DNA of 64,000 nt from Fimicolochytrium jonesii (taxonomy: Eukaryota). This document shows, one piece after another, positions 36,548 to 56,700 of the stretch. The DNA lies in assembly GCF_025526975.1 (NCBI RefSeq), contig NW_026515680.1:434001-498000 (forward strand). Direction: 5' to 3'. The stretch's first letter is position 1. Every line of letters begins with the position of its first letter. The position numbers were made by a program, and so were the translations under genes. Below the pieces are notes generated by a model. That model was not told the origin of the DNA. It worked only from the letters and a program-made list of their open reading frames with translations, and did no database searches.

Positions 36548-36971
36548 TGTGAACGTGATCAGGTTGACGGCGTACGAGGAGATGGGGAGATTCAAGGGAA
36601 GATTAGTATTTGTGCGCGCGTGACCAGGCGTGATCAGTAGTAGGATAGAGACACACCCCCTTCCCCCCCCCCCCCCACCATAAAATGGACAACACTGGCG
36701 TAGATTGCCCGGGGAGCATCTTACCGGCTATAGACTAGACCATAAGTTTGTACCATAGGAGCTCAATTGACCCAACTGACTAGCGTACCTACGCCTAGCA
36801 GTCCAGGGTTGCCAATATACGGAGTACGCCCAAGCGTGTCTACTTGTGTGGTGAGAATGGGGATTTAGTTGGTCTCTACCTTTTACCTTGCACTCTCCAC
36901 TAGTAGATCATCTCCACCCGCGAACGACCCGATTTAGGACCTATCTCAGGGAATAATCGACCACTTTCACA
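36548..36971 (+). repeat. 5' LTR of the inner Gypsy (424 bp)
   Basis: TG..CA ends. The last 132 bp (36840-36971) are repeated at 46409-46540 with 3 mismatches. Confidence 0.88.
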
Positions 36972-36974
36972 TTT

Positions 36975-36992
36975 TGGGGGCTCGGCCGGGAA
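36975..36992 (+). promoter_or_regulatory. Primer-binding site complementary to the tRNA-Pro 3' end
   Basis: TGGGGGCTCGGCCGGGAA, 3 nt after the LTR, matches the classical tRNA-Pro PBS TGGGGGCTCGTCCGGGAT at 16 of 18 positions. Confidence 0.8.
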
Positions 36993-37267
36993 CAAGGAGA
37001 GACCACCTTCAAGGAAAAACAAGGAAGGAATTACAAGGAATCTACGAGGTTATTTCCAAGATCGGATTGGCAAACCACATCTGCCACCTTACAAGAAACC
37101 TACCCACGCGTCGCATTCTCTCTTTCGCTACGGAGAAGCGAAGCACCAATCTCCACCAGAGATTGAAGATCAGTCGATAGATCTTCACGAAGATCAAGAT
37201 AGGGAAACTGGCCGAAGACGCAGAATTTATCGCCAGTCCCCGCTCCGCAAGCCGCTCTTCAAGCCGC

Positions 37268-39106
37268 TTGTCAACCAAGCAAGCAATTGCGGCGAGCAGC
37301 GCGACAGCCAAACGAGCAGCCTACGAGCGATACCGAAGTTCTCTGCTCCTCAAGAGAGAACGCAAGACTACAGGCAAAGCCAAGTCCACGGATTCCCCGT
37401 CCAAGGAATCCCAGTCCAAGGAATCCCAGTCCAAGGAATCTTCCTCTGAGGAATCCTCATCCGAGAATTTGTCGTCAAAACAAGGCCCATCATCCGGTGC
37501 GAACCCGTCCCAAACAACCACAAGACCAAGCAGCTTCCCAAGCGGCTTCCCAAGTACTCCACCAGCCCCAGTATCAAGGCCACCTGCTCAGGATTCCCCC
37601 GTGGACCCTCCAGCGCAACCCCCGTCTATCCATCCATCCATCCATCCAGCCACTGCTGCTGTTGCCCCGGCGACCTCACAGCAACAAGCCCGAGCGCAGA
37701 CTCCCGACCAAGAACGGGAGCAAGAGGACACCTGGTTCACGCCGGTTGCGAGAAGGAATCCCGAAATGGCAGACGGAACCCCCGCAGGAGTCCCCCGAGC
37801 GGCCTCGGCGGCCACGGTACTTGAAGCGGCCGCAAGAGGATTTGAGCGAGCCCACTGGAAGTTGAAGAATGACATCTCGGCGAGATTCAAAGGCAAGCCG
37901 GGCGAGGATGCATATGCATTCCTGGAGAGGCTGAGACAAGAAGCTCAAAGGGCCGTAGACCAAAAGTACTTCGAAAACCTCGACGACATGGTGCCCAAGT
38001 TCGGCCCCCTCTTCAAGGATGGAGCGAAGAAATGGTGGAGCAGTCTGTCGTCGACCGACATTCCATTTGAGCAATTCAAGGAACAATTCATGGCTCAATA
38101 CAACAAGAAGATACCTCCTATCTATCGCTCGGCGAAAGTAGCCAGTATGAAGAAGCTCAAGAAGGAAATGTCGCGCAACTTCGCCATTCGGATGAAAGAA
38201 GCCAATTCCCGCCTCGGCACCACTCCCCTAGACCTAGGCCAGCTCAAGTATGCCTTGTACCAAGGTCACAAGCCTCGTGAGCAAGACAAGATCGAGGAAG
38301 TCAAGATAGGGGGCAAGGACTGGTACGACAAGGCGGTGACCTTTGACCACTTTGCCGAAGACGCGTACCAAAGAATCGACAAGAAACGGCTCCGAAGCCG
38401 GCGCCACGCTCGTAGCTCCTCCTTGTCCTCCTCGGACTTGGAGTCGAGCTCTAGTGGCTCCTCCTCTGGTTCTTCCTCGGAAGAAGAACGCAGCTGTCGT
38501 CGCCGGAACAAGAAGAACAACAGGAGGTTCCGGCCCCAGCGACGAGGATCCCCGTCGCCCATTCTGAAGACGGCCGTCCAAGTTGCCCTGCCCAGTCCCA
38601 TGCCCACCGCCGACTTCGAGAAGCTAGCCAAACAGGCGGCGGAGAACGAGATAACCAAGTTCAAAGAGGAACTCCGCTTGACCGGTAGCCGACGTGGACA
38701 CATGGGACGGGCCATACACTTGATGGAATTTGACGATGACCGGGATGATTACGCCGGTTACGAGGCGTACATGATGGACCAACAACAAGGTCCATACCCC
38801 CGCCAGCCATATCCACGCAACGACTACGGCCAGCAGAGGCAGAACGACCTCAGTACGCAAGTACAGGAAGTCGTCAAGAAAGCGGTTGCCAAAATTGCCG
38901 CGCAAATGGCCAAGGTGCAGATTCACAATGGCCAGTCCTCAGGAGGATTACCAAGGATCGGAGACCGAAAGTGTTACGCCTGCGGAGGCGACCACTTCAA
39001 GGACGACGTGGACCGCGAGACGGGGCAACCAGTATGCCCCAAGAAGCAAAGCCCAGAGGCCGGACATGCCAATGCTGAGAAGCGGCATTTTCCCCGCCAG
39101 GGCTAG
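37268..39106 (+). CDS. Gag of the inner Gypsy (start codon uncertain)
   Basis: Capsid-like FKGKPGEDAYAFLERL..FKDGAKKWW..FEQFKEQF and an atypical zinc knuckle CYACGGDHFKDDVDRETGQPVC. Confidence 0.8.
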   Translation: MSTKQAIAASSATAKRAAYERYRSSLLLKRERKTTGKAKSTDSPSKESQSKESQSKESSSEESSSENLSSKQGPSSGANPSQTTTRPSSFPSGFPSTPPAPVSRPPAQDSPVDPPAQPPSIHPSIHPATAAVAPATSQQQARAQTPDQEREQEDTWFTPVARRNPEMADGTPAGVPRAASAATVLEAAARGFERAHWKLKNDISARFKGKPGEDAYAFLERLRQEAQRAVDQKYFENLDDMVPKFGPLFKDGAKKWWSSLSSTDIPFEQFKEQFMAQYNKKIPPIYRSAKVASMKKLKKEMSRNFAIRMKEANSRLGTTPLDLGQLKYALYQGHKPREQDKIEEVKIGGKDWYDKAVTFDHFAEDAYQRIDKKRLRSRRHARSSSLSSSDLESSSSGSSSGSSSEEERSCRRRNKKNNRRFRPQRRGSPSPILKTAVQVALPSPMPTADFEKLAKQAAENEITKFKEELRLTGSRRGHMGRAIHLMEFDDDRDDYAGYEAYMMDQQQGPYPRQPYPRNDYGQQRQNDLSTQVQEVVKKAVAKIAAQMAKVQIHNGQSSGGLPRIGDRKCYACGGDHFKDDVDRETGQPVCPKKQSPEAGHANAEKRHFPRQG

Positions 39107-39145
39107 GAGCCAAGAGCCTCCTAGTCCTGGAACCGACGGCTCTTG
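39085..39145 (+). promoter_or_regulatory. Predicted -1 ribosomal frameshift signal (slippery site plus H-type pseudoknot)
   Basis: G CAT TTT, a 5-nt spacer, a 13-bp stem CCAGGGCTAGGAG/CTCCTAGTCCTGG (one G-U pair), and loop CAAGAGC pairing with downstream GCTCTTG. The -1 frame is open 39079-39912. Confidence 0.7.
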
Positions 39146-39420
39146 AGCAGAAAGACCACGGAGAATCGCTGCCTCAAGGCCAGGATGAAAGTCTGACCTT
39201 TCCTGCTCGGTCACCATCAGAACCGAGAAGAGGCAGTGATTCCGACTCCGAAAGCGACTGGGGAACGCGCAGAGAACTAACGACAGCTGACAAATCATTA
39301 CAACCTCAACACCTGTCCAAGTCGGGAGAAGAAAAACCCGACTCGGAGGACCCTGACCGTACACGCTACCCGTCTCCGCCACCCGAAAAAGAACTCTACT
39401 TGATCAACTTGGTTGACAAG

Positions 39421-39720
39421 AACGATTGGCAATTGCACCCGGACATCTTTCAGCAACTCGATGACGGACCCTGGGGAGGCCCACACGGCCACACTGTGGA
39501 CCTCTTCGCCACGAAGCAGAACGCTCAAGTTTCAAGGTACTGCTCGGTCGACCAGACGGACACCAATGCAATTGCTCACGACGCCTTCAAGATTTGCTGG
39601 GACGCTGAGAATGGCTGGGTCAATCCCCCTTGGCTCGCCATTCAACAAGTGCTAGACAAGGTCGTCACGGACGGAGCGACCATTACGCTGATTACCCCCG
39701 TATGGCAAGAAGCTCCATGC
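39421..39720 (+). pseudogene. DIRS/Dam-type DNA N6-adenine methyltransferase domain at the N-terminus of pol; C-terminal end cut by a frameshift/deletion
   Basis: DWQLHPDIFQQL..WGGP..VDLFATKQNAQVSRYCS..DAFKICW..GWVNPPWLAIQQVLDK..TLITPVWQEAP contains the DLFA SAM-binding motif and the NPPW catalytic motif in the spacing typical of DIRS MT domains. Confidence 0.85.
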
Positions 39721-42700
39721 ACTTCCGAGACCGGTTGCGCCAAGCGTGGACCTTCAAGACCGGCCCCCGCCATGTCAAGCGCCTGCCATTCCAAGACTGC
39801 TACGCAGGGACTCTGTCCTTCCTACGCATTCCGTTCCGGACAATCCTCTCCATCCGTCGGCGCCCACCAGCAACAGCGGACAAAAAAGGGGAGGAGGACG
39901 CCAAGGCGGTAGCAATTGACACGGCCATATCGGACGCACACAAGAAGGGTTCACTGGAAGAGATAATGCTTCTGGAGAAGACGGTCAAGCGACGGAAACG
40001 CAAGGCATTGAAGAGAGAATTCCTCGACAGCCTTGTCTGGAAACAAGTCGGAACGGACGAGTACGATCCCAAGGCGCAATTCTTCCTGAAAGACTTGACG
40101 ATAGTCACGGGAGAATTGCTGAGCAAGGCAAGACCGTACCTCAATGTCCGAGAAAAGTACGAGATCACCGCGCATCCTGGGGACGACTTACCCACCCAGG
40201 ACACTTGGATGGCTCCGGTGGCTGGAAATGAAGAAAGATTCCACGCCTGGAAAGAGGCCCGAGAGCTGTCCCTCACGGACAGCCGCATCGTCATTCCTCC
40301 CGATGAAGGAAAAGAGGACACCCTCCTTGATTCACTTCATGCCCACGTTGAAAAGGACACGACAAGTAGTCCGGACCTACGCAAGATGTACACAATTGCG
40401 CAGATCTACGAGAAGATTGAGGACACGCCTCTCAACGAGCTCGTTGTCGAGACTGCAGCTAGTCTCAACGGCATGGACGCTACATTCTACATGATGCTGA
40501 AGACCAAGCATGGCTCGAAGATCAAGGCCACCAAGTATGAGCGCAAGCTGTTGGGGATTGGCGAAGGCCGTTCAATAGGCCACATTGAATTGAGAGTCAA
40601 GCCTGGCGTCAATGGAAGGCACAGTTACAAGTTGAAGTTCAACATCATACCCAACTTGGGACGATTGGTGCTTATCGGCATCCCAGGGCTCAATGCAATG
40701 GGGGCAGTCATGGACATGGAGAAGAGATCATTCGCCTTCCGACTACCAACCGAGGAGCAAATGACGACGCCCACGAAGATAACGCTAGAAGACCATCCCC
40801 TTCACACCCACCTCCCGACGATCGCTCCGCTAGGGCCATCACGCTACAACGTAGTTATCAAGCAAGATCGAGTGGTGTTGAAACCAATGGCGGTGACGCA
40901 CGTACGGGTCGGCGGAACGAAGCAAGGAATCCCCGGAACGACGCACCTAGTCGAAGGCAGCAAGGCGTTAGGCGAGTCAGGCATATGGTGTGCGAACCAA
41001 CTTGGAAAGGCCGACGAGAACGGAGAATGGCTGTACCCATTCGCAAATCTCACGCCCCGGAAGCGCATCCTTTGGAAGAATCATGTCGTCGGAACAAACA
41101 CCGCCAGCGACCACGACTTACGGGTAGAACCGGTACCTGAGGCGTATCTGACGGAGGAGAAGCTGAGCGGATGGTTGACCGAAAACCTGAAGAATGACCT
41201 ACCGCCACCGCCGCCCGCATGGCCGAGCAGCCCAAAGGCCGGAGGCCAACGCCATTGGATGATGCCCGGATTGAGAAGCACCACCGGCTCAGCATTCTAC
41301 ACGCTGCAGAGCCAAGAGGAAGTGAAGGCCTGTGGAACGGATGAGCCGGAAGAGGGACCAGTGGAGGTGAAAGGGTTGGGGCAGGAGGAAATTGGCGAAT
41401 TGGCAAAGACATCGGCCATTCACAAGATGAAGGATTTGGACGCGGCCGCTACCCCTCTGGAGGACGCGCAATCCTACACGTCACCAGCCGCCCGCCAAGG
41501 ACGAGACGAAATAGGAGCAATGGCGCCTCGAGCACACCTGGCACCGGAAGAAGACAAAGCATTGCGGGACGTACTGCTAGCAAATGCGGAAGCCTTCGAC
41601 TCCCAAATTCCGGACAAGCCGAACATTCCGTACGAACACCACATGGAGATCATGCCGGGGACTCTTCCCATCGCCCACCCTCCACGCCGACAGGGCCAGC
41701 AGAAGGAGAAGGTTCTACGCGAGCACACCGACACGATGCTGAAGGACAACCTCATCTGACCCAGTAGAACACCATGGGCCGCTCCGGTGTTGCTAGTTAA
41801 AAAGCCGGGGGGTGGACTAAGGTTCGTCACTGACTACCGTGAACTCAACGCAAAGACGATACCCGACTCCTATCCGCTGCCTCGAGTCGACTCGACCATT
41901 GAATTCCTCACCGGCAAAAAGTGGTTCACAACCATGGACCTATGCTGGGGTTTCTGGCAGATACTGATCAAGGAAGAGCACAAGCACCTCACAGCCTTCT
42001 GTACACCCCATGGGCTGTTCGAGTACAACAAACTCCCGTTCGGACTCAAGAATTCTCCGCCTACCTTCCAACGCGTGATGGACGCGGTCCTGGCAGGACT
42101 GAAGTACAGCTTCTGCCTGGTCTACGTGGACGACATCATTGTGTTCTCCGACACGTTCGAGGAGCACATGACCCATGTCTCCCAAGTCCTCACCCGCATT
42201 CAAGAATCTGGACTACGAGTGAAGCTGGAGAAGTGCCATTTCGCGGTACACGCAATTCACTTCCTCGGCAAGAAGGTAGACGGCCAAGGGTTATCAGTAG
42301 ACAAAGCCAAAGTGACCAAGATCCTCGATGTCAAACCCCCAAAGGAAAAGCGTCTGTTGCAACGCCTCCTCGCAATGTCTGTTTACCACCATCAGCACAT
42401 TAAGAGGTACGGCCAAATTGCTCGACCACTGTACGACTTGCTCAAGAACGACGCAGTGTGGAAATGGGGACCAGAAGAGCAAAAGGCATTCGAGGAATTG
42501 CGACAGGGAATGGCGGACGCGGCAATCCTGGAATTCCCGGAAGAAGGATGCCCGCTGGTCCTCAAGTGCGACGCGAGCAAACTCGGACTTGGAGCCGCGC
42601 TCTACAAGGTTAAGGGCGGAAAGGAGATCCCTCTGGTCTTCATCTGCAAGTCGCTAACGGACGCAGAGAAGCAATACTCGCACACGGAGAGAAAGGGATT

Positions 42701-44705
42701 GGCAATTCACTGGGCCGTGACAAAGCTGGAGTACTACATCTGGGGAAAACCATTCACGGTGGAAACAGATCACTCTGCGCTGCTGGCACTGGCCAAGCAC
42801 GGAGACATGGCAGGAAAGTGGGCGCGATGGAGATACGCGCTCCAAGACTACCAGATGGAGATTCGGTACAAAGCCGGCAGCTCACGGTCCCACGCAGTAC
42901 CGGACTTCATATCGAGAGCCTTGTTGGAAGAGAAAAGGTCGATAGGAACCCAGACGGAGGCAATTGAAGAAGCGTCTGGAGAGAGGAAAGACGAGGTGTT
43001 CCTGATGGGGGGAGAAGCGGCCGCCGCGGAGAAGACTTCAGCAACACCAGGTGTCATTACCCTGGAAGGAGCGTTCGCCAAGGAGATTGAACGCAAGCAG
43101 AAGGAGGACTACCGGACAACATCCTGACAAAGCAACTCATGCTACGGACGATATCCGACCTACGCGTCCAGGACGGCAGACTCTATCAAATTCAAGAGTT
43201 TTGCCAACCCGGGTACCGACGCCAGATGTTCAAACAGATTGTCGTACCAGCCAACTTGCGAAGACGATGCCTGGAGCTCTGCCACGACGACCTGTTGGCA
43301 GGACATCTGGGCAGAGACAAAACGTACAGCAGACTCCAACAGTCCTTCTGGTGGCCGGAATGCGTGGCGGACATGATCAATCACCTTGCCAGTTGCGTCA
43401 AATGCAATCAGCACAAGCCGGGAATGCCGAAGTCTGCAAGAGGAGGAGAGATGGACCCAATCGTCATTGGAGACGTGTGGTGGCGGGTCGGAATGGACTT
43501 GCTTGGACCTTTGCCGGCTACAAGGAATACGAAGTTCAAATACGTACTCGTTGTCATCGACTACGCCAGCAAATTCAGCTTCGCAATTCCATTGAAGGAC
43601 GCAAAGGCGTACATGGTTGCCCGGGCTCTTATGGAGCACGTGTTCACCATCTTCGGGGTCCCCGGAGTGATAACGTCGGACCGTGGACAGCCCTTCACGA
43701 GCGAGGTTCCGAAGGCGCTCCTGAAACTACTGGGGGCCGCCCCAGCATTAGCATTCATGGGAGGCGATTGGGAAAGGAGCAATGCCGGTTGGGGACTTGC
43801 AAGCGGAGATTGTCAGGCACCTGCAGATTGCATGGGATTTGGCCAAGGAGAACGTCGCCAAAGCCCAAGCACGACAAAAGGCGTGGTACGACAAGAACTC
43901 CGAGAAGACAAGCGCCCAGCTAGGAGAACAAGTCTGGCTGGCAATTCCCCAGTTTCGTAAGTCGACCAACGTGGAAAATGTGACGGCCATCAAGAAGTTC
44001 GCTGCCAAATGGAGTGGACCACACCGGGTTGTAGGTGTCGGCGACAACGGCCTCACCTACAAGCTTATGGAACTCCTCTTGCCAATTGAAGTCATCTACC
44101 AGACAGCCCATATCCGGCGCATGCGACCATTCACCGCCAGGCGACCGCTAGACCCGACGGAACTAATTGAGATGGACGAAGAGGAAATTTTGACAGCTCA
44201 ATTGGCACAGGCAGCGACGGCTCGAGTCTTGAAGAAGACGCCATTCAGGCGTAGAGCGTACGGGACGTCCCACGAACTGAAGAAGCGAGCGCTCGACCCG
44301 GACACGGACTCGGAAGACTCTGATGGCAATGTCGGGGATGAATGGGAGGTCAAGAAGATCATCGACCACCGTCAGGACGACAATGGGAAGTGGGAATTCG
44401 AAGGCCACTGGAAAAACTGGAACACAGGGCACGACAGCTGGGTGGTACTCTCGGACTTCCGAGGGCAGGAGCTACTGGATACGTACTGTCGCGCAAACGG
44501 CATCACCGTTGGGGACGAATCACCTACGGTGGACGCCCAGACCGGCGATGACAGCATGCAATTACGCCGGTCCACGAGACAATCCACGCAGAAGTCTCCA
44601 AAAAGGGGAGGAGATAAGAGCGCGGATACTTCAGAGGCCGCAGAGCGGAGGCAGAACAAAGGAGGGAACAGAGGGTCAGCTGGTCGGCACAGGAGCAGGG
44701 AATGA
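39721..44705 (+). pseudogene. Inner Gypsy pol: protease, spacer, RT, RNase H, integrase (core partly deleted), GPY/F, chromodomain
   Basis: Protease LVVETAASLN..VLIGIPGL; RT PWAAPVLLVKK, FGLKNSP and YVDD; RNase H CDASKLGLGA; integrase HHCC, GMDLLGP and SDRG; WSGPHRV; chromodomain EWEVKKIIDHR..HWKNW..DSWV (44340-44500). Stop at 41757 and frame breaks near 43105 and 43740. Confidence 0.9.
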
Positions 44706-44946
44706 GAAAAAAAAAAAAGGGAAAAAAGCACGCAACCGCGGACCAACCGGCATCTTCCACGTTGGTGGAGTACCCAGCGGCCCAGCGGGAGCAAGACGTG
44801 CAGCAAGAGAATGCTCAGCAGGACAGAAGGGAGAGAACGCCCAGAACCCAAGGGAATTCCCCCTCTTCGGAAATGCATAAATAGCGGGCATCAGAAGCCG
44901 CTTCCCTCAACCCCCACCAACCCTCAACCGACCACCGTCCCCCAGC

Positions 44947-46423
44947 ATGCTCCTACGCTACCCCTTCCCCCCTCTCGACCCCAAACCGGTACTCCCAGAA
45001 CTCCGACCATCACGTCCCGAAGATCCTCCACCACCTCCTCAAGAAGATCCAGCGTCGCAGACCTGTCCAATGCGGTCTCGAAGCCGCCTATCCTGCGACC
45101 AACAACCAGGACCGAGAATCAGCGCACGAAATCGCCGGTTCCCGATACCCCTGTCCGCCCCGTGTCCCCCACGCACCAATCAAGGTCGACTCTCCCCCTC
45201 AGCTCGACAGACGGTTCAGAGAAGCCACCGGCTCCCGTACTCCCGTTCCAGTGAAGGCAACGGGGAACAAACGTCCGCCAATCCGCTTGCCCAGAATCAC
45301 CGTGCGAAATGCCGGCGACACCCCTGTCGACACCCGCAAGAAAAGGAAGGTGTTGGACACGCCCGAAGAACGACGAAGAGGCGAAGCAATCATTGGCCCC
45401 GCCACTCTCAGCGTCTCCGGCCTGGACCCGGAAGAGGACGAGTTCACGAGGGAGACCCTGATGAGGGACGTGGAATACCAGCCCGGAAATAAAGAGGAGT
45501 ACTACGGAGCAGAGAAGAACGGGGCCGTCTGCATATGCGAAAACCCGGACAATAGCGCTTCCATTTATGGTCGCGTTGTCCAATGCGAACTCGAAGACCT
45601 CTGATGTGGAAGCCAATTCTACCCCCCAGAATGCCTCAACAATCAGAGACTTCCCCACCCCCAGGAAGACGAAGAAGTTCTGCAGGACTACTACGCCCAG
45701 TACAACTTTGTTTGCCCACCTTGCCTAGAAGACCTCCCGGAGAATGCGGAGACCGACGGCAAGATCACTGCGACCAAGCACCCGAACGTTGGCAAGACGA
45801 GGGGACTGCGTCTGGCGCCCTACGACCATGAGAACCGCAAGTGGAAGACCGACTTCAAGATGAAGACCGGGGAGGGGGATATAGAGGAAGGCCGACCGTA
45901 CCGGGTCTCAGGGAGGGACATCGAAACCATCATGCTCCCGAGCCAATACAAGGAGTATACGGACGTCCCATCCACCATGTACACCCGTGTGCACGGCCTC
46001 TTCCCCCACCCGGTGCTGACCTCGCGCTCGAGAGCCCACAACCACATGCAAGACTGGGAAAAGGAATTGATCTTGAAGCAAGCCGTCTTTGTCGTCATTA
46101 CCAACGTGGAGCCGCACTACACTCAATGTGCCAAGGCCCTCCGCAAAGAGCATGGCATCCATGAGACTCGGGACGACCTAGAGGACCCAGAAGCACTGCT
46201 CCTCCAAGCCGCCTTCCCCCGCATCGACCAGCCCAACTACCTTATCTACGCAGGCCCCAACCTTTGGGAACTCGAGATCATCGTTGCGAGCTTTGGCCCT
46301 AAACCCAAAGACAAGCCGGAGGACAAGGAGCTGACGTTTGGCATGCCAAGAGTAGAGTCTGAATTGTGGTCAAGCCTGGCGTTGAAATGCTTGCCACCGG
46401 CGACCTTGCTACTTGTGTGGTGA
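44947..46423 (+). pseudogene. ORF3 of the inner Gypsy containing a PHD finger (45530-45724); one internal TGA; 3' end lost by deletion into the LTR
   Basis: Frame 2 is open from 44885 to 46423 apart from TGA at 45602. It reads VCICENPD..IYGRVVQCELEDL*CGSQFYPPECL..FVCPPC. Start codon is uncertain (ATG 44947 is in another frame). Confidence 0.7.
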
Positions 46424-46540
46424 GAATAGGGATTTAGTTGGTCTCTACCTTTTACCTTGCACTCTCCACAAGTAGATCATCTCCACCCGCGAACGACCCG
46501 ATTTAGGACCTATCTCAGGGAATAATCAACCACTTTCACA
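46409..46540 (+). repeat. Truncated 3' LTR of the inner Gypsy
   Basis: 129/132 identity to 36840-36971. Ends TTTCACA and is followed by the TSD GATG. Confidence 0.9.
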
Positions 46541-49363
46541 GATGTCTTCCTGCCCTTTCTTGAAGAGTTCGATTTCGTTTCGATCTACAGCTTGAAGTTT
46601 GAGTTCTTGTCCTTTGAGTGTTGGATTCCAACCCGGGAGGATTGGAGAGCGTCCGAGATCTACTTTGAATGGCGATAAACCTTCATATTCCTCCCTCGGA
46701 GCGGTATTATATGCGAATTCGATTAAAGGCAATAGTTTCTTCCAATTGCTTTTGTCGTAGTTGAGGTATTGCTTCCAAATCCTTTTCAGGGTTTGGATGG
46801 CTCGCTCAACTTTGCCGTCGGTTTGCTGATGACGAGCCGTAGCGAATTCGTGTTTTACACCGAGGAGAATGTCGATCGCGAGGAAGAAGTCGGGTTGAAG
46901 TGCGCGAGGTTCGCGATCCGTAACGAAGACCTTTGGCGTACCGACATGTTTCCAAACATGATCTAGAAAAACTTGGGCTAGTTCACGTCCAGTAATTGTC
47001 TTCTTGATTGGTGTCAGAATCACACGTCCGGAAAAGAAATCAATGCAGACAAGACCAGAGTTTGTTTCATCTACTTTGAAAATGTCGAATCCGATCGTGT
47101 GCCATCTTCAAAAAGGTATAGGAAGAGGTCGTATCGACGATGACCAGGTTTGAATTGTCGACAGGATTTGCAAGTTCCAACGTTTTTGATAACGTCGGAG
47201 CGTACGGTAGGCCAGTAATAGTCCGTAAGAATTCTCGCAAGAGTCTTCTTAACACCAAGATGTCCTCCGGTGGCAAGTTCGTCATGGAATTTCCGCAAGA
47301 TCTTTGGGCGAATGTCTTCAGGAACATATAAACGTCCTTCGTGTCGTACTAATCCATTTTCAAACTATAACGGAGTTCTTTCGAAGTTTTCTCGTGTTGA
47401 GGCTTTCGAGAAATTTCATTGAGATAATCCGAATATGGATCTTCGCGTAGCGCTTTTTTCCATTCTTCTTCTGAGCAGGTAGGTGAGTTTTGTGGATCGT
47501 CTGTCGTAGCATTGGAGGAAGGTTTGTTGACAAGCATGTTGCTGATCTGCGTATGCATGTCGAGGCGTCGTTGACAATCTACACACCGAGGCGCATAGAT
47601 TGGATTGCGGGAGAGCATGTCGGCGATATGATTCCATTGTCCAGGTAAATACGGGATGTCAAAATCATACTCTTGTAGCTTCTCTTCCCAATTGGCTTGT
47701 CTTCTGCTCAAATGGGGGTGCGTTTGGATGAATTCGAGTCCCTTGCGACCGCTAAAACATCGGAAGTAACAACCGATGAGATATGGTCAATTGGCGACCA
47801 ACATCTTGACAAGAGCTAATAGCTCCTGTTCGGGCGTAGGATATCGTGTTTCTGCGTCCTTCATCTTTCTAGAAAAGAAGACCACAGGCCGGAGCCGAGG
47901 TAACTTCTTCCATTGTCCGACGAGAGTAGGCAGATTCGTAGGGATCGTTTCATCGCCAGAAGGTTGTCCAATCCAGCCAGCGATAGCGTAGCCTGATGAG
48001 TTGGTGTAGACATAAATTGGCTTGGTTTTATTGATTGTTGCTAGCGTAGGCGCATTGATCAACGCTTCTTTCAACTTTTGAAATGCCTCTTGTTGCTCAG
48101 AACCCCATCGAAATTTCACTTTCGAAGATTGAATACTTGATAGGGGCAGAGCGATGTCCAAATAACCTTGTACAAAGTCGAGGAAGTAGTTTGTGAACCC
48201 GAGAAAGCTTTGAACTCCTTTTGTTGACTTTGGAGTAGCCCAATCCTTGATAGCTAGGATTTTTGAGGGCGCGATGCGAACACCATGTCTTCCGACAATA
48301 TGTCCACACCATTCAAGTTCTTCTTTAGCCCATACGCACTTTGAAGGCTTGATGAAAAGGGCGTGTTCCTCAAGTTTCTTCAGGATACAATCGACGTGTT
48401 CCCGATGTTCGGCTAAGGTCTTTGAGAAAATGAAAATGTCGTGCAAGTAGGTAGCGAGGAATTCGTCGTAATCTTTATGGAAGATCTTATTCATAAGACG
48501 TTGAAGCGCAGCAGGTGCGTTGGTAAGCCCGAACGGCATGACCAAATACTTGAAATGTCCAAAGCGAGTTTGTATTGCCGTTTTTTCCCGATCTTGTTTC
48601 CGTATAAGAAGACGATGGTATGCTTCTCGAATATCAATAAGCGTAAACCATTTACAATCTTGAATCCGATCCCTCATCTCACGAATATTGGGTAAAGGAG
48701 TGCGATCTTTCTTGATGACGGCGTTGAGACCTCGGTAGTCCCAACAGATGCGTAATCCGCCATCTTTCTTTTTCGCAAAGACAACACTAGCTCCCCAGGG
48801 ACTTGAGGAGTGTTGTACCCATCCTTTTTCGAGCATTGAGGTGATTTGTTTCTTGAGTTCAGCGAGTTCTTCTTTGTTCATGTGCCAAAGAGGATGCCAA
48901 ACAGGTTCAGCACCTTCAGTGAGTTCGATCTTGAAATTATCTTCTCTGCGATCAGGGGGTAGACCTTCCGGTTCCTTGAAGAGCGTATTGACGTATTTAT
49001 TGAGGATATCCTTGAGATGTCCTGGAGTTCCTTTAAGCTCTTGAGGAGTGTCCGGTATTTCGTTAAGAGTGAGGCGACAGACCGTGTCTTTTTCAAACTT
49101 GTTCCGTCGCCAAGCCTCATTGAATCGCTTAGAAGTCATTTCTATGACTTGAGGATTGCGAAGGGCATTGGCTTGAGCGAATCGAGATACATAATGAGGT
49201 GCGGCTTGTAGAGGACGAGTATCCACAGGTTTAATGATCCAAACAGGTTGAAGGGTCTTTTGTCATAGACCGGATCTCGTTGTACGTCGAAGTAAGGGTT
49301 GTTGTGTTTCGGGATGGTATTTGACGTCTTCCCAGTTTCTTGGAGTTCTTTCGCACTTGATGG

Positions 49364-51081: not shown

Positions 51082-51235
51082 GTTGGCAGTGGGGCTTGCG
51101 GGGCTTCAGTGAGGCTTGGCGCCTTATGTAATGTATCACCGAGAGCTCGGGTGGCCAGCCCGGGTCTTGGATCAAATAGAAGTAAAGAGGTATGATATGA
51201 AATACAAGTGAAGATGAGATATCCCCGACACGCAG

Positions 51236-52796
51236 CCCGTTCCCTTTGAGAGCTCTGAAGGCGAGAGCACTATCTCCGGTCTTCATTGCGCACACTGCAC
51301 TCGAGAACTCGACTTGTGCTCCGTCCTCAGTGAGCTGGGCTACTGAGATGAGGTTCTTTTCAAGTTAGGGAACAAACCAGATGTTTCGAAGGGTGCCAGC
51401 ATGCTCCCTGTGTGTTGTGATCGTAATGAAGTCCATTCCAATGGCTAGAACTGACCGGTTGTCAGCTAGCTGGACCTGGATCTCATTGTCCAGCGTCATC
51501 CAGTTGTGCAGCCATTCATTGACATGTGTCATGTGACAGGAAGCTCCTGAATTGGTAATCCAGCGTTCCGGGCTGATTTCACTGCGTTTAGGAAGAGGAA
51601 CACGGTTCCTTGGCTAGCCTGCTGTGACTCAACTTGATTTGCATTGTGGGCTTGAGCTAGCTCTCATTTGAGCTTCTTGCACTTGTTCTTCCAATGCCTT
51701 TCAATGCCACATTGATAACACTTTCCCTTCTTCCTGGCGAACCTGGCTGAGACCCTGGCCTCCTGCTGGCGCCCACCATCCCCAATGAACGCTTTTCCAG
51801 TCAATCTGACTGGTTTGGAGTTCTCTTGCACCTAGCTTCTCTATTTAGAAGTCTGGCCATCAAGAACACCATGTCTAAGTCATAGTCATAAGACCGAATG
51901 GTTTGTTCCCAAACTCAAAAAGACCCGCATCTCAGTAGCCCAGCTGCCTGGGATTGGAGCACAAGTTGAGTGCTCAAGTGCAGAACGCACAATCAAGATC
52001 ATAGATGATGCTCTAGCCCATGAAGGCTCAAGCTATACCTGAGCACGCCTACTAAGCAGGAGTACTTCACAGCAGTTCCTTCCATATTTGGCATCAGAGA
52101 CTCAGTCATCTGAATGCTCAAGACGTTCAGAAGCTCACCAACTGCTACCAACACAATATCAGAGTCACTGGACTCCCTGAAGGTCACATCTGCAAAGTCT
52201 GCACGCGTTCCAAGGAGTCCAGAGCTCCCTTTCCAAAGAAACAAGCTACCTGAGCCACAGAAGTATTGGCATTCATCTACACTGACTTCTGTGGGCCCAT
52301 AAGGATGTTTACCTTTGGCGGCTGCACCTATTTTGCATTACTCATTGATAACAAGTGAAGAACCTTTGACGCATGGGAACAGTACAAGGCTCTTATACAG
52401 AAGCAGACTGGGATGCCAATCAAAGTCCTCAGATCTGACAAAGGACGCAAATACAAATCCACCCAGTTCACCATCGCCCTCAGAAGGGCTGGAATACAAC
52501 ACCAGCGCGCTGCTACCAACATTCCACAGCTGAATGGTGTAGCGGAAGGCATGAACCGCACTCTGACTGAGGTTGCACGGTGCCTACTCACCCAGGCTGG
52601 TCTTGGACATAAATATTGGGCAGACGCCCTCCTTGCACCCGGGCATATTCGAAAGACAACTTCAAGATACCATATGAAGCATTCTTTGGTCGCAAGCCCA
52701 CCCGTCTTCACCTCAGAGTGCTTGGATACATAGCCTATGCAGTGGTTCTCAAGAAAAGACGAGGAAAGGTTTGGCTACAGCTCCTCCAGCATAGCC
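51236..52796. mobile_element. Ty1/Copia fragments: minus-strand gag/protease (51236-~51895) joined to plus-strand GAG-pre-integrase/integrase (~51897-52796)
   Basis: Minus: VPNLKKNLISVAQL and WITNSGASCHMT. Plus: HIWHQRL.HLN, IKVLRSDKG and PQLNGVAEGMNRTL. Confidence 0.8.
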
Positions 52797-53710
52797 TGTT
52801 ATGGACGACGCGCCCATACCATAAGCTTACCTCATGACAGCACACTGAGAGCCGCCAATGTCAAACGCCAATGTCAATGTCAGTGTCAATGTCTGTGTCA
52901 ATGTCAGTGTCAATGTCAATGTCAATGCCACTCCCCCTCTCTCCTCTCATTTCGCCAATCCTCCCGCAATATCGCCACTCCTCCTCTCTCCTCTCATTTC
53001 GCCAATCCTCCCGCAATACTCGCCACTCCTCCTCTCTCCTTTCATTTTGCCAATCCCCCCACGGCTTCTCCACACCTCCCACTACTTCTCCATAACCAGC
53101 AGCTGTAGCAATGCCCTCTACGCTCGCCACGGCCACTCTAGGAGCATAGCTGGCGCCCCCCCCAGTCCTCTCTTGTTGTTGTTGTTGTTCTTTGATCTGC
53201 TGGGTTGTCTATCTATAAATAGCCGGCCTCTCTTCGTCCATTGCCTTCCTCCCCAGCAGATCAACACCAGTTCTTCTCATCTCTTGTTCTGGTCCTTGTC
53301 TCTTGTTTCGCCAATACAATCTCCTGTCGCCCATCGCTCTCGCCTTGTCTTCTCTACTTCGCTTCCGCCTCAGTCGTCGAGATCATAAGAGTTTGATCTG
53401 CTGCAACACTGCGAAGTTCAGAACCCGTCCAGCCCTGCATCCGACAAACCTTTTTCGCCATGTCCCAACCCGAATCCGTACCTTTCACCGCCGAGCAATG
53501 GAACGATATGTGCCAAGCCATCGCCGCCTTGCAAAGCCAAAACGCCAACTTGCAGGCCAACCTAGCGCAAGCCCAAGCCGACGCACAAGCTGCCCAGAGC
53601 ATCGCCGCCCAGGTTCAAGCCGATACGTACACCCGCCCCCAAGTCACCAACCCTGCTCTGGAGCCAAGAATCAGCTCGCCCGAGAAGTTTGATGGTACCC
53701 ACAGCAAACT
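52797..53710 (+). mobile_element. 5' LTR (52797-53390), self-priming-type PBS and truncated gag of a Tf1/sushi-like Gypsy
   Basis: LTR TGTTATG..CATAAGA with TATA at 53214. PBS TTGATCTGCTG (53393-53403) is complementary to CAGCAGATCAA (53254-53264). Gag MSQPE..EPRISSPEKFDGTHSKL starts at 53460. Confidence 0.8.
52857..53060. repeat. (TGTCAA/TGTCAG)n microsatellite and three 47-48-bp repeats within the LTR U3 (mirrored at 63050-63253)
   Basis: Visible directly. Repeat unit GCCACTCCTCCTCTCTCCTCTCATTTCGCCAATCCTCCCGCAATA. Confidence 0.9.
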
Positions 53711-56700
53711 GACCGGTTGTCAGCTAGCTGGACCTGGATCTCAGTGTCCAGCGTCATGCAGTTGTGCAGCCATTCATTGACATGTGTCATGTGAGAGGAA
53801 GCTCCTGGATTGATAATCCAGTGTTCCGGGCTGATTTCATTGCGTTTAGGAAGAGGAACACGGTTTCTTGGCTAGCCTGCTGTGACTCAACTTGATTTGC
53901 ATTGTGGGCTTGAGCTAGCTCTCATTTGAGCTTCTTGCACTTGTTCTTCCAATGCCCTTCAATGCCACATTGATAACACTTTCCCTTCTTCCTGGCGAAC
54001 CTGGCTGAGACCCCGGCCTCCTGCTGGCGCCCACCATCCCCAAAGAACGCTTTTCCAGTCAATCTGACTGGTTTGGAGTTCTCTTGCACCTAGCTTCTTT
54101 ATTTAGAAGTCTGGCCATCAAGAACACCATGTCTAAATCATAGTCATAAGACCAAATGGTTTGTTCTCAAACTCGAAAAGACCCGCATCTCAGTAGCCCA
54201 GCTGCCTGAGATTGGAGCACAAGTCGAGTGCTCAAGTGCAGAACGCACAATCAAGATCATAGATGGTGCTCTAGCCCATGAAGGCTCAAGCTATACCTGA
54301 GCATGCCTACTACGCAGGAGTAGTTCACAGCAGTTCCTTCCATATTTGGCATCAGAGACTCGGTCATCTGAATGCTCAAGACGTTCAGAAGCTCACCAAC
54401 TGCTACCAACACAATATCAGAGTCACTGGACTCCCTGAAGGTCACATCTGCAAAGGCTGCACGCTCTCCAAGGAGTCCAGAGCGCCCTTTCCAACAAAAT
54501 AAGCTACCCGAGCCACAGAAGTACTGGCATTCATCCACACTGACCTCTGTGGGTCCATCAGGATGTTGACCCTTGGGGGCGGCACCTATTTCACATTATT
54601 CATTGAGCCCAAGACCCTCATAGCAAGCTCTAAACGCGAACCCATGGATGCTGAGTACGCATCCCTGGTCAAGAACGGCACCTGGGAGTCCTGTCCAGCA
54701 CCCAAAGGTCGCAACCTTGTCAGCTGCAATTGGACTTGCAACTTCAGGACGAAGGCTGATGGCAGCATTGAGCGCTACAAGGCCAGACTAGTTGCACAGG
54801 GCTTCTCACAAGAAGAGGGAGTCAACTACAACGAAACCTTTGCTCCAGTAGCCAATTTCGACACAAACAGACTTCTGCTCTCATGGGAAGCAGCCCAAGA
54901 TCTTGAAATGGACCAAATGGACGTATCTACAGCGTTTCTGAACCGAACACTCAGTGAAGAGATCTATATGAAGCAGTCACCGGGCTACATCAAGCCAGGA
55001 GAAAAGCGTCGCGTGCTTAAACTCAAGAAGACTCTCTATGGTCTTAACCAAGCTCCGAGGAATGGAAACATCGAAATACATGGCGCACTCGGCGAGAAAG
55101 GCTTCATACGCCTTGACTCAGACCACTGCGTCTACATCAGGCTCTTTGCGGGATGGCTACTCATCCTGATCCTCTATGTCGACAATCTCATACTTATGAG
55201 CAACAAGAGACTCGATCTTGATGACTTCAAGGCCAAGGAACTTCAGAAAGCCTACGAAATGCGCGACCTTGGTGCCCTACACTACTTCCTGGGCCTCCTA
55301 GTCACCAGAGACCAAGCCAAATGACTCCTGATGCTCAACCGGACTGGTTACATCGAAAATTGCCCTGGAACATATGGCATGGCTGATTGCAACCCGGTAG
55401 CGACACTCAATCTTGTCGGAAGCCCTCTCACCAAAGAAATGGAACCTCCGACGTCTGAGGAGACTGCAGAAATGCAGGACAAGCCCTGTCAATCTGATCT
55501 ATGCGATCATTGGGACAAGATCAGACATAGCGCAAGCAGTCGGAGCTGTGAGCCAGTTCTTAGCCAATGCAGGCAAACAACACTGGAAAGCTGCCAGGCG
55601 CATTCTAGCCTATCTCAAGGCAACCAAACACCATCAACTTCGACTTGGTGCTGTTGAAGGGTCAGACCCAGACTGGGGAGGTTGCCCAAACACCAAACGA
55701 TCGACCACTGGATACCTCTTCACCTTTGGCTGTCCAGTTAGCTGCAAATCACATAAACAACGCACTACAGCACTCTCCAGCACCGAAGGTGAATACATGG
55801 CATCCACAGATGCCTGTAAAGAAGCCATGTGGCTCAGAAACCTACTCAAGGAACTGAGCACACACCAAAACCAGACGGAGCTCGTCCAAGGCCCCACAGT
55901 CATCTGGGAGGACAATCAAAGCGCTTTTGCACTTGTTATGAACCCAGGTCATCACACACAAACCAAACATATTGATTTCAGATACCACTTCATTCGTGAA
56001 CAAGTCGCATGTCAAACAGCTATCCTCAAGTACTGCCCAACAAAGGAGATGATAGCCAAGGCGAAACTCCTGCCCATGCCAGACTTCACACACCTGAGAG
56101 CTGGTATGCACTTGTAGGCTGCAGAGCCTTCAAGTGAGAGGGAGTATTGAGATAGCATCAAGATGTGGCACTTGGAAGGCTCTGCAAGACCTAGGACGCA
56201 TCTTGGCTCTGAAGATATCTGGAACGTTTACCAGACATCCAGGCATCAGAACTGCGCTTTCACGATGTTCTTAGGGCTTACAGCGGTCAGTTGTGGCAGT
56301 GTGGACCTGTGATCGAGTTGTAGTAGCTACAGTGGGCATATGATGGTATAGAACGTTCTCTGGGCACTCCGCAGACTTGGCAAAAGCCCGTGGGGCATCC
56401 GCAGGTAGACTCTGGGGTACACAGACTTGGCAAAACCTTACCAACCTTACCAACCTGAACTGCGGCACTCAGAGCCGCCTTGGGCGACTTGAAGGGGTCT
56501 CAGAGGGTGCTTTGGAAGCCCCAGCACATAGCTAGATCCACAGAAATGTAGCTCCAGAATCCTAAAAAAGGCAGACGTGTTGCCCATCCCCTCCCTTCAC
56601 TTTATCCTCTTCAAGACACATCTTTTCCTCGCGCTACTCTAGCTACAGTACTGTCTTCTACATAGTAACACTGCCCTCTGGGCGCCCACATCTCTCAGTC

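Follow-up and report, generated by a model that had tools for sequence, protein, structure and literature searches.

The DNA analysed here is a stretch of 64,000 nucleotides from Fimicolochytrium jonesii (GCF_025526975.1, NW_026515680.1, positions 434,001 to 498,000 of the forward strand), referred to below as the window; positions are counted from its first letter, and all features described lie on its + strand. Nested elements fill the window, and the element at 36548–46540 interrupts the integrase of an outer element. This inner element is a TSD-bounded LTR retrotransposon of the Ty3/Gypsy chromovirus type, arranged in the order LTR, PBS-like site, gag, DAM-like domain, RT/RNase H, integrase, chromodomain, a third open reading frame (ORF3) and an LTR remnant. 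The left TSD copy, GATG (36544–36547), is identical to the four bases that follow the 3′ LTR (46541–46544). The 5′ LTR (36548–36971) is 424 nt long with TG...CA ends, and its last 132 nt (36840–36971) form a direct repeat, 98% identical, with the remnant of the 3′ LTR at 46409–46540. Excising 36548–46540 together with one GATG copy brings the interrupted outer integrase back in frame. The start of the 5′ LTR is therefore placed at 36548 by both the TSD and the restored frame of the host element, and these rule out the 132-nt repeat as the entire LTR. Searches of the window with tblastn and blastn matched only the element's own locus and the LTR pair, with no further copies.

A putative PBS-like sequence (TGG...), read off the sequence, begins 3 nt past the LTR (36975–36989). 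The gag ORF (37181–39106) matches Retrotrans_gag at E 5.6e-5 with 23.7 bits, just under the cut-off of 24.1; a CCHC-like motif is seen near the C-terminus of its translation. An N6-adenine methyltransferase-like domain of the DAM type lies at 39421–39666 within the ORF 39079–39912 and contains an NPPW motif. Its match to the Pfam family Dam (PF05869; E 0.0013, 18.8 bits) is below the cut-off of 28.1. A PHROG DNA methyltransferase was matched at E 0.012, and Atlas related the domain to eukaryotic clusters with a score of 0.93, Dam being found on 11% of the members of one cluster. Sequence searches of the PDB with this ORF returned nothing meaningful. The reverse transcriptase and RNase H (41760–43127) are clearly recognized (RVT_1, E 3.4e-36; RT_RNaseH, E 6e-27), as are the zinc-binding domain and core of the integrase (43091–43960; Integrase_H2C2, E 3.9e-19; rve, E 1.7e-8), which a frameshift has put out of frame with respect to the main pol frame. 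The chromodomain at the integrase C-terminus (44343–44486) scores just over its cut-off (Chromo, E 1.5e-5, 25.3 bits against 25.1), and the pol frame closes with a TGA at 44703–44705.

Between the pol stop and ORF3 lies a spacer of 306 nt (44706–45011), all 102 codons of which are open in the frame shared by pol and ORF3. A spacer of this length stayed open in that frame in 1286 of 20000 shuffles, and the remaining two frames are each stopped near 44880. A purine-rich run is found at 44703–44728 and CATAAATA at 44876–44883; the latter is the candidate TATA-like sequence from which the earlier note discussed below had proposed that a separate transcript may start. The N-terminus of ORF3 lies on the strand of pol and in pol frame 0, 306 nt beyond the pol stop. 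This N-terminal part, in the ancestral (pol) frame, covers 45012–45170, where tblastn aligns residues 15–53 of the relative P0002 at 87% identity. The N-terminus of the relatives (MSQRSSTTSSRRSSVADL...) is encoded from 45012 to about 45170, in a frame other than that of downstream ORF3, and a frameshift must therefore lie near 45165–45172. ACG stands at 45012, where relatives carry the start Met. Past the frameshift, translation and the tblastn frames delimit a basic, disordered region that runs up to a zinc finger (45167–45601). An earlier note on this DNA, made from the sequence alone, had joined two pieces of open reading frame into a single frame. This proved correct, as 44885–45604 and 45605–46423 are separated by one TGA (45602–45604). 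The start that it gave for ORF3, 44885, did not hold: the position is a stop-to-stop boundary, and the N-terminus of the relatives lies in the other frame from 45012. The GC content of ORF3 is 0.57–0.62, that of gag-pol 0.54–0.57 and that of the surrounding element 0.45.

ORF3 carries a second frameshift near 46386 and, as the earlier note had also claimed, is cut off by a deletion, whose junction falls at 46408|46409. Lost with it are some 440 codons of ORF3, the PPT along with the rest of the 3′ untranslated part, and roughly 290 nt of the 3′ LTR. The C-terminal 450 residues of the relatives, which are missing from this copy, have no match in the window (best E 0.26). A tblastn extension at 46409–46510, which would have placed the relatives' C-terminus in or beyond the LTR, was discarded as unsupported for the same reason. 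The window copy of ORF3 is dead: its start codon is gone, it contains two frameshifts and one stop, the His ligand of its finger has become Pro, and the catalytic core has been deleted.

The finger is a PHD-type C4HC3 zinc finger at 45530–45724 that keeps six of its eight ligand codons. Reading through the stop (X) gives VCICENPDNSASIYGRVVQCELEDLXCGSQFYPPEC...FVCPPC. The intact codons are C1 (45530), C2 (45536), C3 (45584), C5 (45632), C6 (45713) and C7 (45722), and the two altered ones are the TGA at the fourth-Cys site (45602–45604) and a CCC (Pro) codon at the His-ligand site (45623–45625), each exactly where the earlier note had placed it. Relatives carry His at the latter site, within [FW]YH, in agreement with the proposal that CCC replaces the codon of the His ligand. 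The accompanying guess that the TGA arose from CGA is unsupported, because the relatives have Cys rather than Arg at this site (DLCCGSQFYH), as seen in P0002, P0004, P0005, P0007, P0009, P0015, P0016, P0017 and P0019.

The pattern C-x-C-x10-15-C-x5-C-x6-8-H-x2-C-x17-49-C-x2-C is complete in six of the ten database proteins covering the finger (P0002, P0007, P0009, P0016, P0017, P0019); the remaining four show a frameshift, a truncation or one altered ligand. Among the F. jonesii sister proteins spanning the finger, one of four has it fully intact. The copies keep the His and Cys spacing even at 21–25% identity, and the reading frame is also kept among them. The earlier note had named both as the points on which its reading hung, so the reading stands. 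Neither the six frames of the window nor any of 20 shuffles contain the full C4HC3 pattern (0 matches in each), which makes the count uninformative as a test of chance. That the finger goes beyond chance follows from its homology to the database relatives and not from the pattern count.

The affinity of the finger was addressed with profiles. Profile A5 was built from distant ORF3 relatives, and profiles A4 and A7 are weighted to the clade of the window copy. Against the PDB, all four matches of A5 under E 0.001 were PHD fingers of ING1, ING2 or ING3 (ING2, 2.9e-5; ING3, 1.9e-4; ING1, 6.3e-4; ING3, 8.3e-4), with Yng1, Pygopus, ING4 and BPTF next in rank. The clade-weighted profiles match weakly (A4: ING2, E 0.91; A7: EBS, 0.05, and ING2, 0.1). 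All Pfam PHD matches fall under the curated cut-offs: PHD_NSD is matched by three of 17 members, at best with E 0.0093 and 16.7 bits where the cut-off is 23.9, and PHD by two of 17 (best E 0.68). Together, the ligands of the relatives and the A5 profile support the proposal of the earlier note that ORF3 encodes an ING-like PHD finger, of which the His and one Cys are mutated in the window copy.

The ORF3 finger and those of ING1, ING2, ING3 and Yng1 (PDB 9M4S, 1X4I, 9M4R, 7ZMX, 2JMI) have in common the C-x-C start, the G..[MV]..C motif, W[FY]H..C and the late C-x2-C, and the ING fingers are the best profile matches. As a further likeness, P0007, P0009 and P0015 have an aromatic residue ahead of the first Cys, and most ORF3 relatives a Trp two residues ahead of the His. 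In ING2 these two aromatic positions belong to the H3K4me3 cage. In contrast to ING, Val and Phe occupy them in the F. jonesii copies, the first loop is longer in the clade of the window copy (x15 versus x10-11) and so is the last loop. The ORF3 finger, known here from sequence, also differs in being joined to an oxygenase-like domain without an ING scaffold.

The earlier note had described about 230 residues after the finger as unrecognized and truncated. The truncation by the deletion stands, but models of the relatives indicate that the segment is the start, the N-terminal ~40%, of a TET/JBP-like dioxygenase fold. In the window, the N-terminal ~150 residues of this predicted fold are encoded at 45935–46408, with the frameshift near 46386, and map to residues 293–442 of P0007; the catalytic core of the fold is absent from this copy. 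Among the Foldseek matches listed for the P0007 model, those at E <= 0.001 (12 in all) were to CcTet (best 3.3e-6), with CMD1, NgTET1 and TET2 coming after. For the P0017 model (pTM 0.61), the matches listed at E <= 0.001 (26 in all) were to CcTet, CMD1, NgTET1 and TET2, the best at 2.1e-9. VIA-align, in which residues 293–664 of P0007 align with CcTet, gave Z 13.6 for CcTet (rmsd 4.7 Å over 280 residues), 12.2 for NgTET1, 10.8 for TET2 and 9.9 for CMD1; the best Z among non-TET oxygenases was 8.0. Both models are low in overall confidence (mean pLDDT 50.8 and 57.6), with high rmsd values. On these predicted structures, the fold of the intact ORF3 relatives is closest to TET/JBP structures.

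At the level of sequence, Pfam Tet_JBP (PF12851) is matched by one of 17 members, P0020, at E 1.2e-4 and 21.8 bits, below the cut-off of 34.9; P0020 in turn matches P0002 at E 8.8e-6. Leads from Atlas also ended in Tet_JBP clusters. Sequence searches of the PDB with profiles A4, A5 and A7 reached no TET chains, and P0002 alone gave only a chance match to a designed TIM barrel.

The core positions conserved in the family are DCH..D, a second His and R[FY]xH. Within the HxD...H triad, placed by motif position, both His are invariant and the Asp site of HxD varies. Asp stands there only in P0009, P0017, P0019 and P0020; the F. jonesii copies, P0007, P0010 and P0012 have Asn, and P0011 has Lys. 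Most members have R[FY][SV]H about 20 residues past the second His, with His replacing Arg in P0011; from its position, this Arg is a candidate 2-oxoglutarate-binding residue. Catalysis in the clade of the window copy appears uncertain because Asn occupies the position of the iron-binding Asp of HxD.

All five significant database matches of ORF3 are F. jonesii proteins, from five contigs, with 74–85% identity and E values from 9e-196 to 6e-90; more distant relatives share 21–43% identity. An exhaustive search collected 15 proteins at E <= 0.001, nine of these at <= 1e-30. The hosts of the family are F. jonesii, where it is multi-copy and decaying (gene models EV422DRAFT_571922, _503065, _569215, _506929, _330223, _503674, _526601 and _526600), Geranomyces variabilis and Borealophlyctis nickersoniae (KAJ3164019, KAJ3266258), and environmental sequences. 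The sister copies are spread over at least seven contigs and decay in a transposon-like manner. All four sister models that extend to the N-terminus keep the start Met, as does P0015. Among 4705 candidates, no longer protein fusing pol and ORF3 was found, which is weak evidence. A word-indexed search with profile A5 returned only its query, P0017, and searches with alignment A3 gave 58 pattern matches in metagenome contigs and 14 in viral contigs, 0 of them confirmed in either set.

We consider it very probable that 45012–46408 is a decayed gene for a PHD finger and a TET/JBP-like domain inside the LTR element 36548–46540. ORF3 presumably travels with the whole element family, beyond the window copy; since the linkage of pol, ORF3 and LTR was observed once, in the decayed copy of the window, its carriage by the family rests on this one copy. 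The fuller reading, to which we give an even chance, is that this was the third gene of a chromovirus, whose product docked on methylated histone H3 and oxidized bases, thereby keeping chromatin permissive. By analogy with ING fingers, the finger would dock on methylated H3 tails and may read H3K4 methylation. By analogy with CcTet, the dioxygenase-like domain would likely oxidize methylated bases, 5mC or 6mA in DNA. We propose that the protein would thus keep the chromatin of the element permissive, likely resisting silencing. Alternatively, it may tune 6mA/H3K4me3, the state characteristic of active chromatin in early-diverging fungi. ORF3 may also work jointly with the DAM-like domain and the chromodomain that the element itself encodes. 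The corresponding claim for the lineage, namely that one lineage of chytrid chromoviruses unites four epigenetic modules, a DAM-like domain in pol, a chromodomain on the integrase and a third gene or pol extension fusing an ING-like H3K4me3-reader PHD finger to a TET/JBP-like dioxygenase, seems to us as open to doubt as to acceptance.

Other explanations can be weighed against this. It is possible, though rather unlikely, that ORF3 is an element-borne pseudo-enzyme, whose TET-like domain only binds (methylated) DNA and, together with the PHD finger, forms a chromatin tether without base oxidation. Such a tether might steer integration or the pre-integration complex, as a chromodomain does. The HxN or HxK found in the F. 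jonesii copies, P0007, P0010, P0011 and P0012 is in line with this, and the conservation of the other core positions over 38–45% identity despite these changes suggests selection for a non-catalytic function. However, little or no variation is seen at the two His, the +5 Asp and R[FY]xH, a degree of conservation beyond the needs of a mere DNA-binding scaffold. The location of ORF3 in the pol frame behind the integrase and chromodomain, across an open spacer, would be expected of a C-terminal targeting module, and PHD fingers and chromodomains of retrotransposons are discussed as targeting devices in the available part of PMC6673714. Against such a module speak the start Met of the sister models and P0015 and the failure to find a fused pol-ORF3 protein among the candidates.

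It is also unlikely that ORF3 is foreign to the retrotransposon family. In that case, a piece of a multi-copy host gene, or of a different mobile element bearing a PHD-TET-like gene, would have inserted between pol and the 3′ LTR of the window copy only, and a later deletion would have removed its far boundary. The single pol-ORF3 junction would fit this account, as would the deletion at 46408|46409, which took whatever was downstream, and the crowding of the window with nested elements. In addition, according to the accessible portion of PMC12730594, TET/JBP genes travel in fungi with Helitrons and with many superfamilies of DNA transposons, and are missing from retrotransposons. Yet ORF3 shares the strand and reading frame of pol across the stop-free 102-codon spacer, and its base composition is like that of its own element, unlike the surrounding one. 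No sign of a transposase ORF, of a second TSD or of a terminal repeat was apparent around 44706–46408, and the sister copies, on at least seven contigs, decay as transposon copies do. Were ORF3 an env-like gene of an errantivirus-like element, or some other gene for a virion or structural protein, its place between pol and the 3′ LTR would fit, but we regard this identity as extremely improbable. The maximum 19-residue Kyte-Doolittle mean is 0.96–1.37 in six proteins, with no hydrophobic segment, and the domain content is a zinc finger and an oxygenase-like fold. Env was rejected as an identity on this profile, which lacks a signal peptide or TM anchor, in keeping with the earlier note, which had denied both an env function and a clear TM segment.

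Returning to the reading of ORF3 as chromovirus cargo with a finger and a dioxygenase-like domain, its closest known counterparts are the transposon-borne TET/JBP genes of fungi described by Kojima 2025 (PMC12730594; here and below, as far as its available text goes). These comprise PU, AG and PE types, are carried by Kyakuja, Dileera, Zisupton, hAT, Harbinger, IS3EU, EnSpm, ESTA, Plavaka and Helitron elements, and are thought to aid escape from methylation-based silencing. In both cases a TET/JBP-like 2OG/Fe(II) dioxygenase is a passenger gene of a mobile element, present in many, often decayed, copies, and the PE type, like ORF3, is recognized mainly through its structural resemblance to CcTET, NgTET and CMD1. 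In contrast, the carrier of ORF3 is a chromovirus LTR retrotransposon; TET/JBP cargo has been reported for DNA transposons and not for retrotransposons, and the same source found no retrotransposon with a TET/JBP gene and speculated on the reasons. The host of ORF3 is a chytrid, whereas the hosts there are Basidiomycota or Ascomycota. ORF3 also has an N-terminal PHD finger, a term that occurs 0 times in the text available from that paper, and HxN in the clade of the window copy replaces the HxD of those systems.

CcTet of Coprinopsis cinerea (PDB 7VPN, 7W5P, 8JKK), likewise a fungal protein, is the top structural match of both predicted ORF3 models and, according to the PDB titles, binds 6mA DNA and 5mC DNA. 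It shares 8–14% sequence identity with the ORF3 relatives in structural alignments, without a sequence-level match, and no PHD finger is evident in the matched PDB chains, so that the likeness is one of fold, suggested by low-confidence models.

The DAM-LTR or "EpiLTR" retrotransposons (bioRxiv 10.64898/2026.05.21.726589, as covered by its accessible main text) assemble toolkits of DAM, DNMT and chromodomain. Both they and the window element are Ty3/Gypsy or chromovirus-like, and EpiLTRs add a DIRS-type DAM, a chromodomain and, in some, a post-pol DNMT. The window element has a chromodomain as DAM-LTRs do and a putative DAM-like domain, whose NPPW resembles their motif of Asn-Pro-Pro plus an aromatic residue, the domain match itself being sub-threshold. 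The five EpiLTR lineages come from green algae, an ochrophyte, ichthyosporeans, Pyropia and Euglena; the strings "fung" and "chytrid" occur 0 times in that main text, whereas the window element is fungal. The extra module is a DNMT, a writer, in EpiLTRs versus a PHD finger with a TET-like domain, a reader and putative eraser, here. Unlike in DAM-LTRs, the DAM-like domain of the window element, itself a sub-threshold call, would lie between gag and RT.

Two further groups of retroelements are comparable in part. The Ty3/Gypsy elements of orchids, like the window element, are LTR retrotransposons with a fixed 2OG/Fe(II) dioxygenase domain; theirs is an AlkB-type m6A RNA demethylase, with an RNA target, a plant host and no PHD finger mentioned in the available text (PMC9289625), whereas ORF3 is TET/JBP-like. 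PHD fingers have been cited for CR1-like non-LTR elements and a Chlamydomonas LTR element. These fingers are retroelement-encoded, as that of ORF3 is, and are discussed as readers of histone marks guiding integration, but they sit in the elements' own ORFs without an attached oxygenase-like domain, as described in the accessible part of PMC6673714. Our literature search, with subscription papers outside its coverage, found no retrotransposon-borne TET/JBP gene and no fungal PHD-TET fusion.

Transposon TET/JBP genes are the clearest case of mobile elements with an anti-silencing enzyme, and according to the available text of PMC12730594 they are so far found only in DNA transposons and Helitrons of Dikarya. 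If our interpretation is correct, this asymmetry between DNA transposons and retrotransposons would disappear with a TET-like gene on an LTR retrotransposon of a chytrid. Among TET/JBP-like genes, ORF3 would be the first carried by a retrotransposon, and among transposon TETs the first joined to a histone reader. The fusion with an ING-like PHD finger would provide a direct link between histone reading and DNA base oxidation, and the retroelement could both place and remove DNA marks wherever it recognizes the chromatin itself. In chytrids and other early-diverging fungi, 6mA occurs with H3K4me3 on active genes, as reported in the accessible parts of PMC12695648 and PMC12019607. Together with the binding of 6mA and 5mC by CcTet and the DAM-like domain of the element, this would make the family a testable system for the possible manipulation of adenine or cytosine methylation by a retroelement. 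The clade with HxN would offer a natural test of whether TET-like cargo must be catalytic.

The element that contains ORF3 is a chromovirus-type Ty3/Gypsy LTR retrotransposon of 9.99 kb (36548-46540, plus strand), with domain-search matches on that strand to gag, reverse transcriptase (RT) and RNase H (RVT_1, E 3.4e-36), integrase (E 3.9e-19) and a chromodomain (E 1.5e-5). A 132-nt direct repeat (36840-36971 and 46409-46540, 98% identical) marks the LTR ends, and a PBS-like site starting with TGG lies 3 nt past its 5′ copy. The whole element interrupts the integrase gene of a second, minus-strand Gypsy element. Excising 36548-46540 with one copy of GATG joins ...ELFKKGQEDI in frame to ARIVRENLQRSQ..., and this rejoining fixes the 5′ LTR at 36548-36971 (424 nt, TG...CA), GATG as the flanking target-site duplication (TSD) and the 3′ LTR as a remnant of only 132 nt (46409-46540). 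The outer, minus-strand element, at 36004-36547 and from 46541 to about 51231, is likewise a Gypsy chromovirus, richer in AT, and its integrase is split; direct repeats at 35549-35691 and 51082-51231 (93-95% identical) are its candidate LTRs. Farther downstream, an inverted repeat of at least 1278 nt (52111-53388 and 62722-63999, 99% complementary) reaches the window end and flanks about 9.3 kb. Both arms contain 45-48-nt tandem repeats, and between them (56760-62238) lie three tandem 2228-nt units with further inverted copies of these units; the whole structure (52111-63999) is a candidate DIRS-like or other complex repeat.

Between gag and RT, the ORF at 39079-39912 carries, at about 39421-39666, a predicted DAM-like (N6-adenine DNA methyltransferase-like) domain of DIRS type with an NPPW motif. 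The database matches of this ORF are all sub-threshold: Pfam Dam (E 0.0013), a PHROG DNA methyltransferase (E 0.012) and Atlas neighbours (0.93), one cluster of which has Dam on 11% of its members. A May 2026 preprint (10.64898/2026.05.21.726589) describes Ty3/Gypsy elements with captured DIRS-derived DAM domains as DAM-LTRs, and those to which a DNMT and a chromodomain were added as EpiLTRs. The hosts it names are green algae, an ochrophyte, ichthyosporeans, Pyropia and Euglena. The present element, in contrast, comes from a chytrid, and neither "fung" nor "chytrid" occurs in the preprint's main text, although its supplements may list more taxa. A 716-residue ORF (39609-41759) occupies the expected protease site between the DAM-like domain and RT; it has no Pfam match, and its translation contains no obvious D[ST]G motif.

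In ORF3 itself, 44885-45604 and 45605-46423 form one reading frame split by a single TGA (45602-45604), as the earlier note had observed. Read through, with X for the stop, it gives VCICENPDNSASIYGRVVQCELEDLXCGSQFYPPEC...FVCPPC, in which six of the eight C4HC3 positions are intact; the TGA takes the place of the fourth Cys, and the His codon reads CCC (45623-45625). The full finger pattern, as a regular expression, has no match in the window's six frames or in any of 20 shuffles, so the pattern is rare, although such a count is uninformative for a damaged copy. The case for the finger being real rests on homology.

Searching with residues 150-512 of the read-through, we obtained five matches at E ≤ 0.001 from 5316 candidates. 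Each is a Fimicolochytrium jonesii (chytrid, Spizellomycetales) model annotated "uncharacterized protein", each lies on a different contig, and identity to the window copy is 74-85%. With one F. jonesii protein, P0002 (880 residues), as the query, exhaustive HMMER searching yielded 15 proteins at E ≤ 0.001, 11 at ≤ 1e-10 and nine at ≤ 1e-30. This set adds three further F. jonesii fragments, one protein each from Geranomyces variabilis and Borealophlyctis nickersoniae, and environmental proteins. Among the latter, P0007 is uninterrupted (1066 residues); it shares 43% identity with P0002, and 162 of its 409 residues aligned with the window read-through are the same. P0007 and two other relatives, P0012 and P0014, have an extra C-terminal alpha/beta domain (about residues 900-1060 of P0007, pLDDT 70-84 in its model) without family assignment, which is absent or truncated in the F. 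jonesii models.

At the two damaged sites the relatives read DLC[CSVAT]G..[WF]YH.EC, with Cys opposite the TGA and His opposite CCC. The prediction that CCC replaces a His ligand was therefore right, whereas the suggested CGA>TGA change is unsupported. The pattern C-x-C-x10-15-C-x5-C-x6-8-H-x2-C-x17-49-C-x2-C is complete in six of the ten database proteins spanning the finger; P0003 is frameshifted, P0015 truncated, and P0004 and P0005 have one ligand changed.

Pfam matches to the finger are sub-threshold, with PHD_NSD in 3 of 17 members (best E 0.0093) and PHD in 2 of 17 (best E 0.68). Among profiles built from alignments of the relatives, A5, whose finger columns derive from P0017, P0019 and P0009, matched PDB sequences of ING2 (E 2.9e-5), ING3 (1.9e-4 and 8.3e-4) and ING1 (6.3e-4), followed by Yng1, Pygopus, ING4 and BPTF. 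Profiles weighted to the window's clade, in which the first loop of the finger is longer, gave only ING2 at E 0.91 (A4), or EBS at 0.05 and ING2 at 0.1 (A7). The features by which an ING-like finger was originally recognized are visible in the A4 and A5 alignments to PDB, which share C-x-C, [FY]G.[MV]..C and W[FY]H..C with ING fingers. We therefore accept an ING-like PHD finger for the family, which the window copy carries minus two ligands.

The part after the finger had been called unrecognized, and Pfam indeed returns no match to it; models of the relatives, however, point to a TET/JBP-like fold. A core conserved in the alignments, DC-H-x-[DNK]-x-x-D-x-G ... G ... E-H ... R-[FY]-x-H, resembles that of 2OG/Fe(II) oxygenases. 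Atlas Tet_JBP clusters (feature score 0.80, TM 0.29-0.35) are leads only. P0020, a relative found at E 8.8e-6 with P0002, has a sub-threshold Pfam Tet_JBP match (E 1.2e-4, 21.8 bits, cut-off 34.9). An AlphaFold2 model of P0007 (17-sequence alignment, mean pLDDT 50.8) gave 12 Foldseek matches to PDB at E ≤ 0.001, all to CcTet of Coprinopsis cinerea (best 3.3e-6), followed by CMD1, NgTET1 and TET2. VIA-align superposed its residues 308-664 on CcTet with Z 13.6 (rmsd 4.7 Å, 280 residues), ahead of NgTET1 (12.2), TET2 (10.8), CMD1 (9.9) and the top non-TET oxygenase (8.0). For the model of P0017, a compact distant relative (pTM 0.61), 26 matches had E ≤ 0.001 (best 2.1e-9); those listed for ranks 1-26, with repeat chains of the same entries omitted, are CcTet, CMD1, NgTET1 and TET2, NgTET1 with a TM of 0.60 normalised by target. 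By these model comparisons, the family thus combines a PHD finger with a TET/JBP-like fold. The mushroom "PE-type" TET/JBP was named from the same kind of evidence (PMC12730594, section 3.2.3). PMC12730594 reports TET/JBP genes to be absent from retrotransposons, and in the literature searched we found no report of a retrotransposon-borne TET/JBP gene or of a PHD-TET fusion in fungi.

Iron-ligand position divides the family into two clades, HxD versus HxN/HxK. A5 shows no variation at either His or at the Asp five residues past the first of them, and this Asp is constant in both clades. The Asp of HxD is kept only in P0009, P0017, P0019 and P0020; Asn replaces it in each of the four F. jonesii copies that cover the site and in P0007, P0010 and P0012, and Lys does so in P0011. 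The window's clade thus lacks one defining feature of the TET/JBP family, and we therefore name it TET/JBP-like rather than file it as a member; it may possibly oxidise a substrate. HxN in this clade is the ground for a rival reading as a non-catalytic reader or tether, a role we consider rather unlikely for the ORF3 protein.

That ORF3 is an unrelated nested insertion or a captured host fragment seems slightly less likely again. It lies within the TSD-delimited unit on the element's strand, and neither a transposase nor another set of element ends was seen near it. Its GC content is 0.57-0.62, against 0.54-0.57 in gag-pol and 0.45 in the outer host element, and the family is dispersed and decaying in a transposon-like manner. 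The ancestral N-terminal frame of ORF3 is the pol frame, with TGA 44703-44705 as the sole stop between them. The 102-codon spacer from this TGA to the Met-equivalent is stop-free, with stops in both other frames; 1286 of 20000 shuffles (6.4%) were likewise stop-free. A purine-rich run (44703-44728) lies at the pol stop. We consider it probable that ORF3 is carried by the element family, a linkage seen in a single decayed copy; its reading as env is rejected. Against carriage by the family, no pol-fused ORF3 protein occurs among 4705 longer candidates. The Met is conserved in sister models reaching the N-terminus and in P0015. ORF3 may be a separate gene or, alternatively, an extension of pol made by readthrough or fusion.

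The window copy (about 45012-46408) is degraded. A frameshift near 45165-45172 places roughly its first 53 residues in another frame, and 45012 reads ACG where relatives have the start Met; 44885, the start proposed earlier, is therefore not the true one. Besides the stop in place of the fourth Cys and the His-to-Pro change, a second frameshift lies near 46386. The truncation by deletion that had been suspected is located at junction 46408|46409, where a single deletion took about 440 ORF3 codons together with the PPT and some 290 nt of LTR; the lost C-terminal part has no match anywhere in the window (best E 0.26). Residues 293-442 of P0007 map onto 45935-46408, so about 40% of the TET/JBP-like domain is kept and the catalytic core is missing. 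Pol is broken in several places, and the whole window element is dead.

Beyond the domain content and position of ORF3, which the comparisons demonstrate, we propose that the protein, when intact, would use its ING-like finger to bind methylated H3K4. Its TET-like domain would oxidise 5mC or 6mA in DNA by analogy with CcTet, whose action on both is taken from the PDB titles of 7W5P and 8JKK. The outcome would be that the element's chromatin is kept permissive or that silencing is countered, the same role as that proposed in PMC12730594 for the TET/JBP cargo of DNA transposons.
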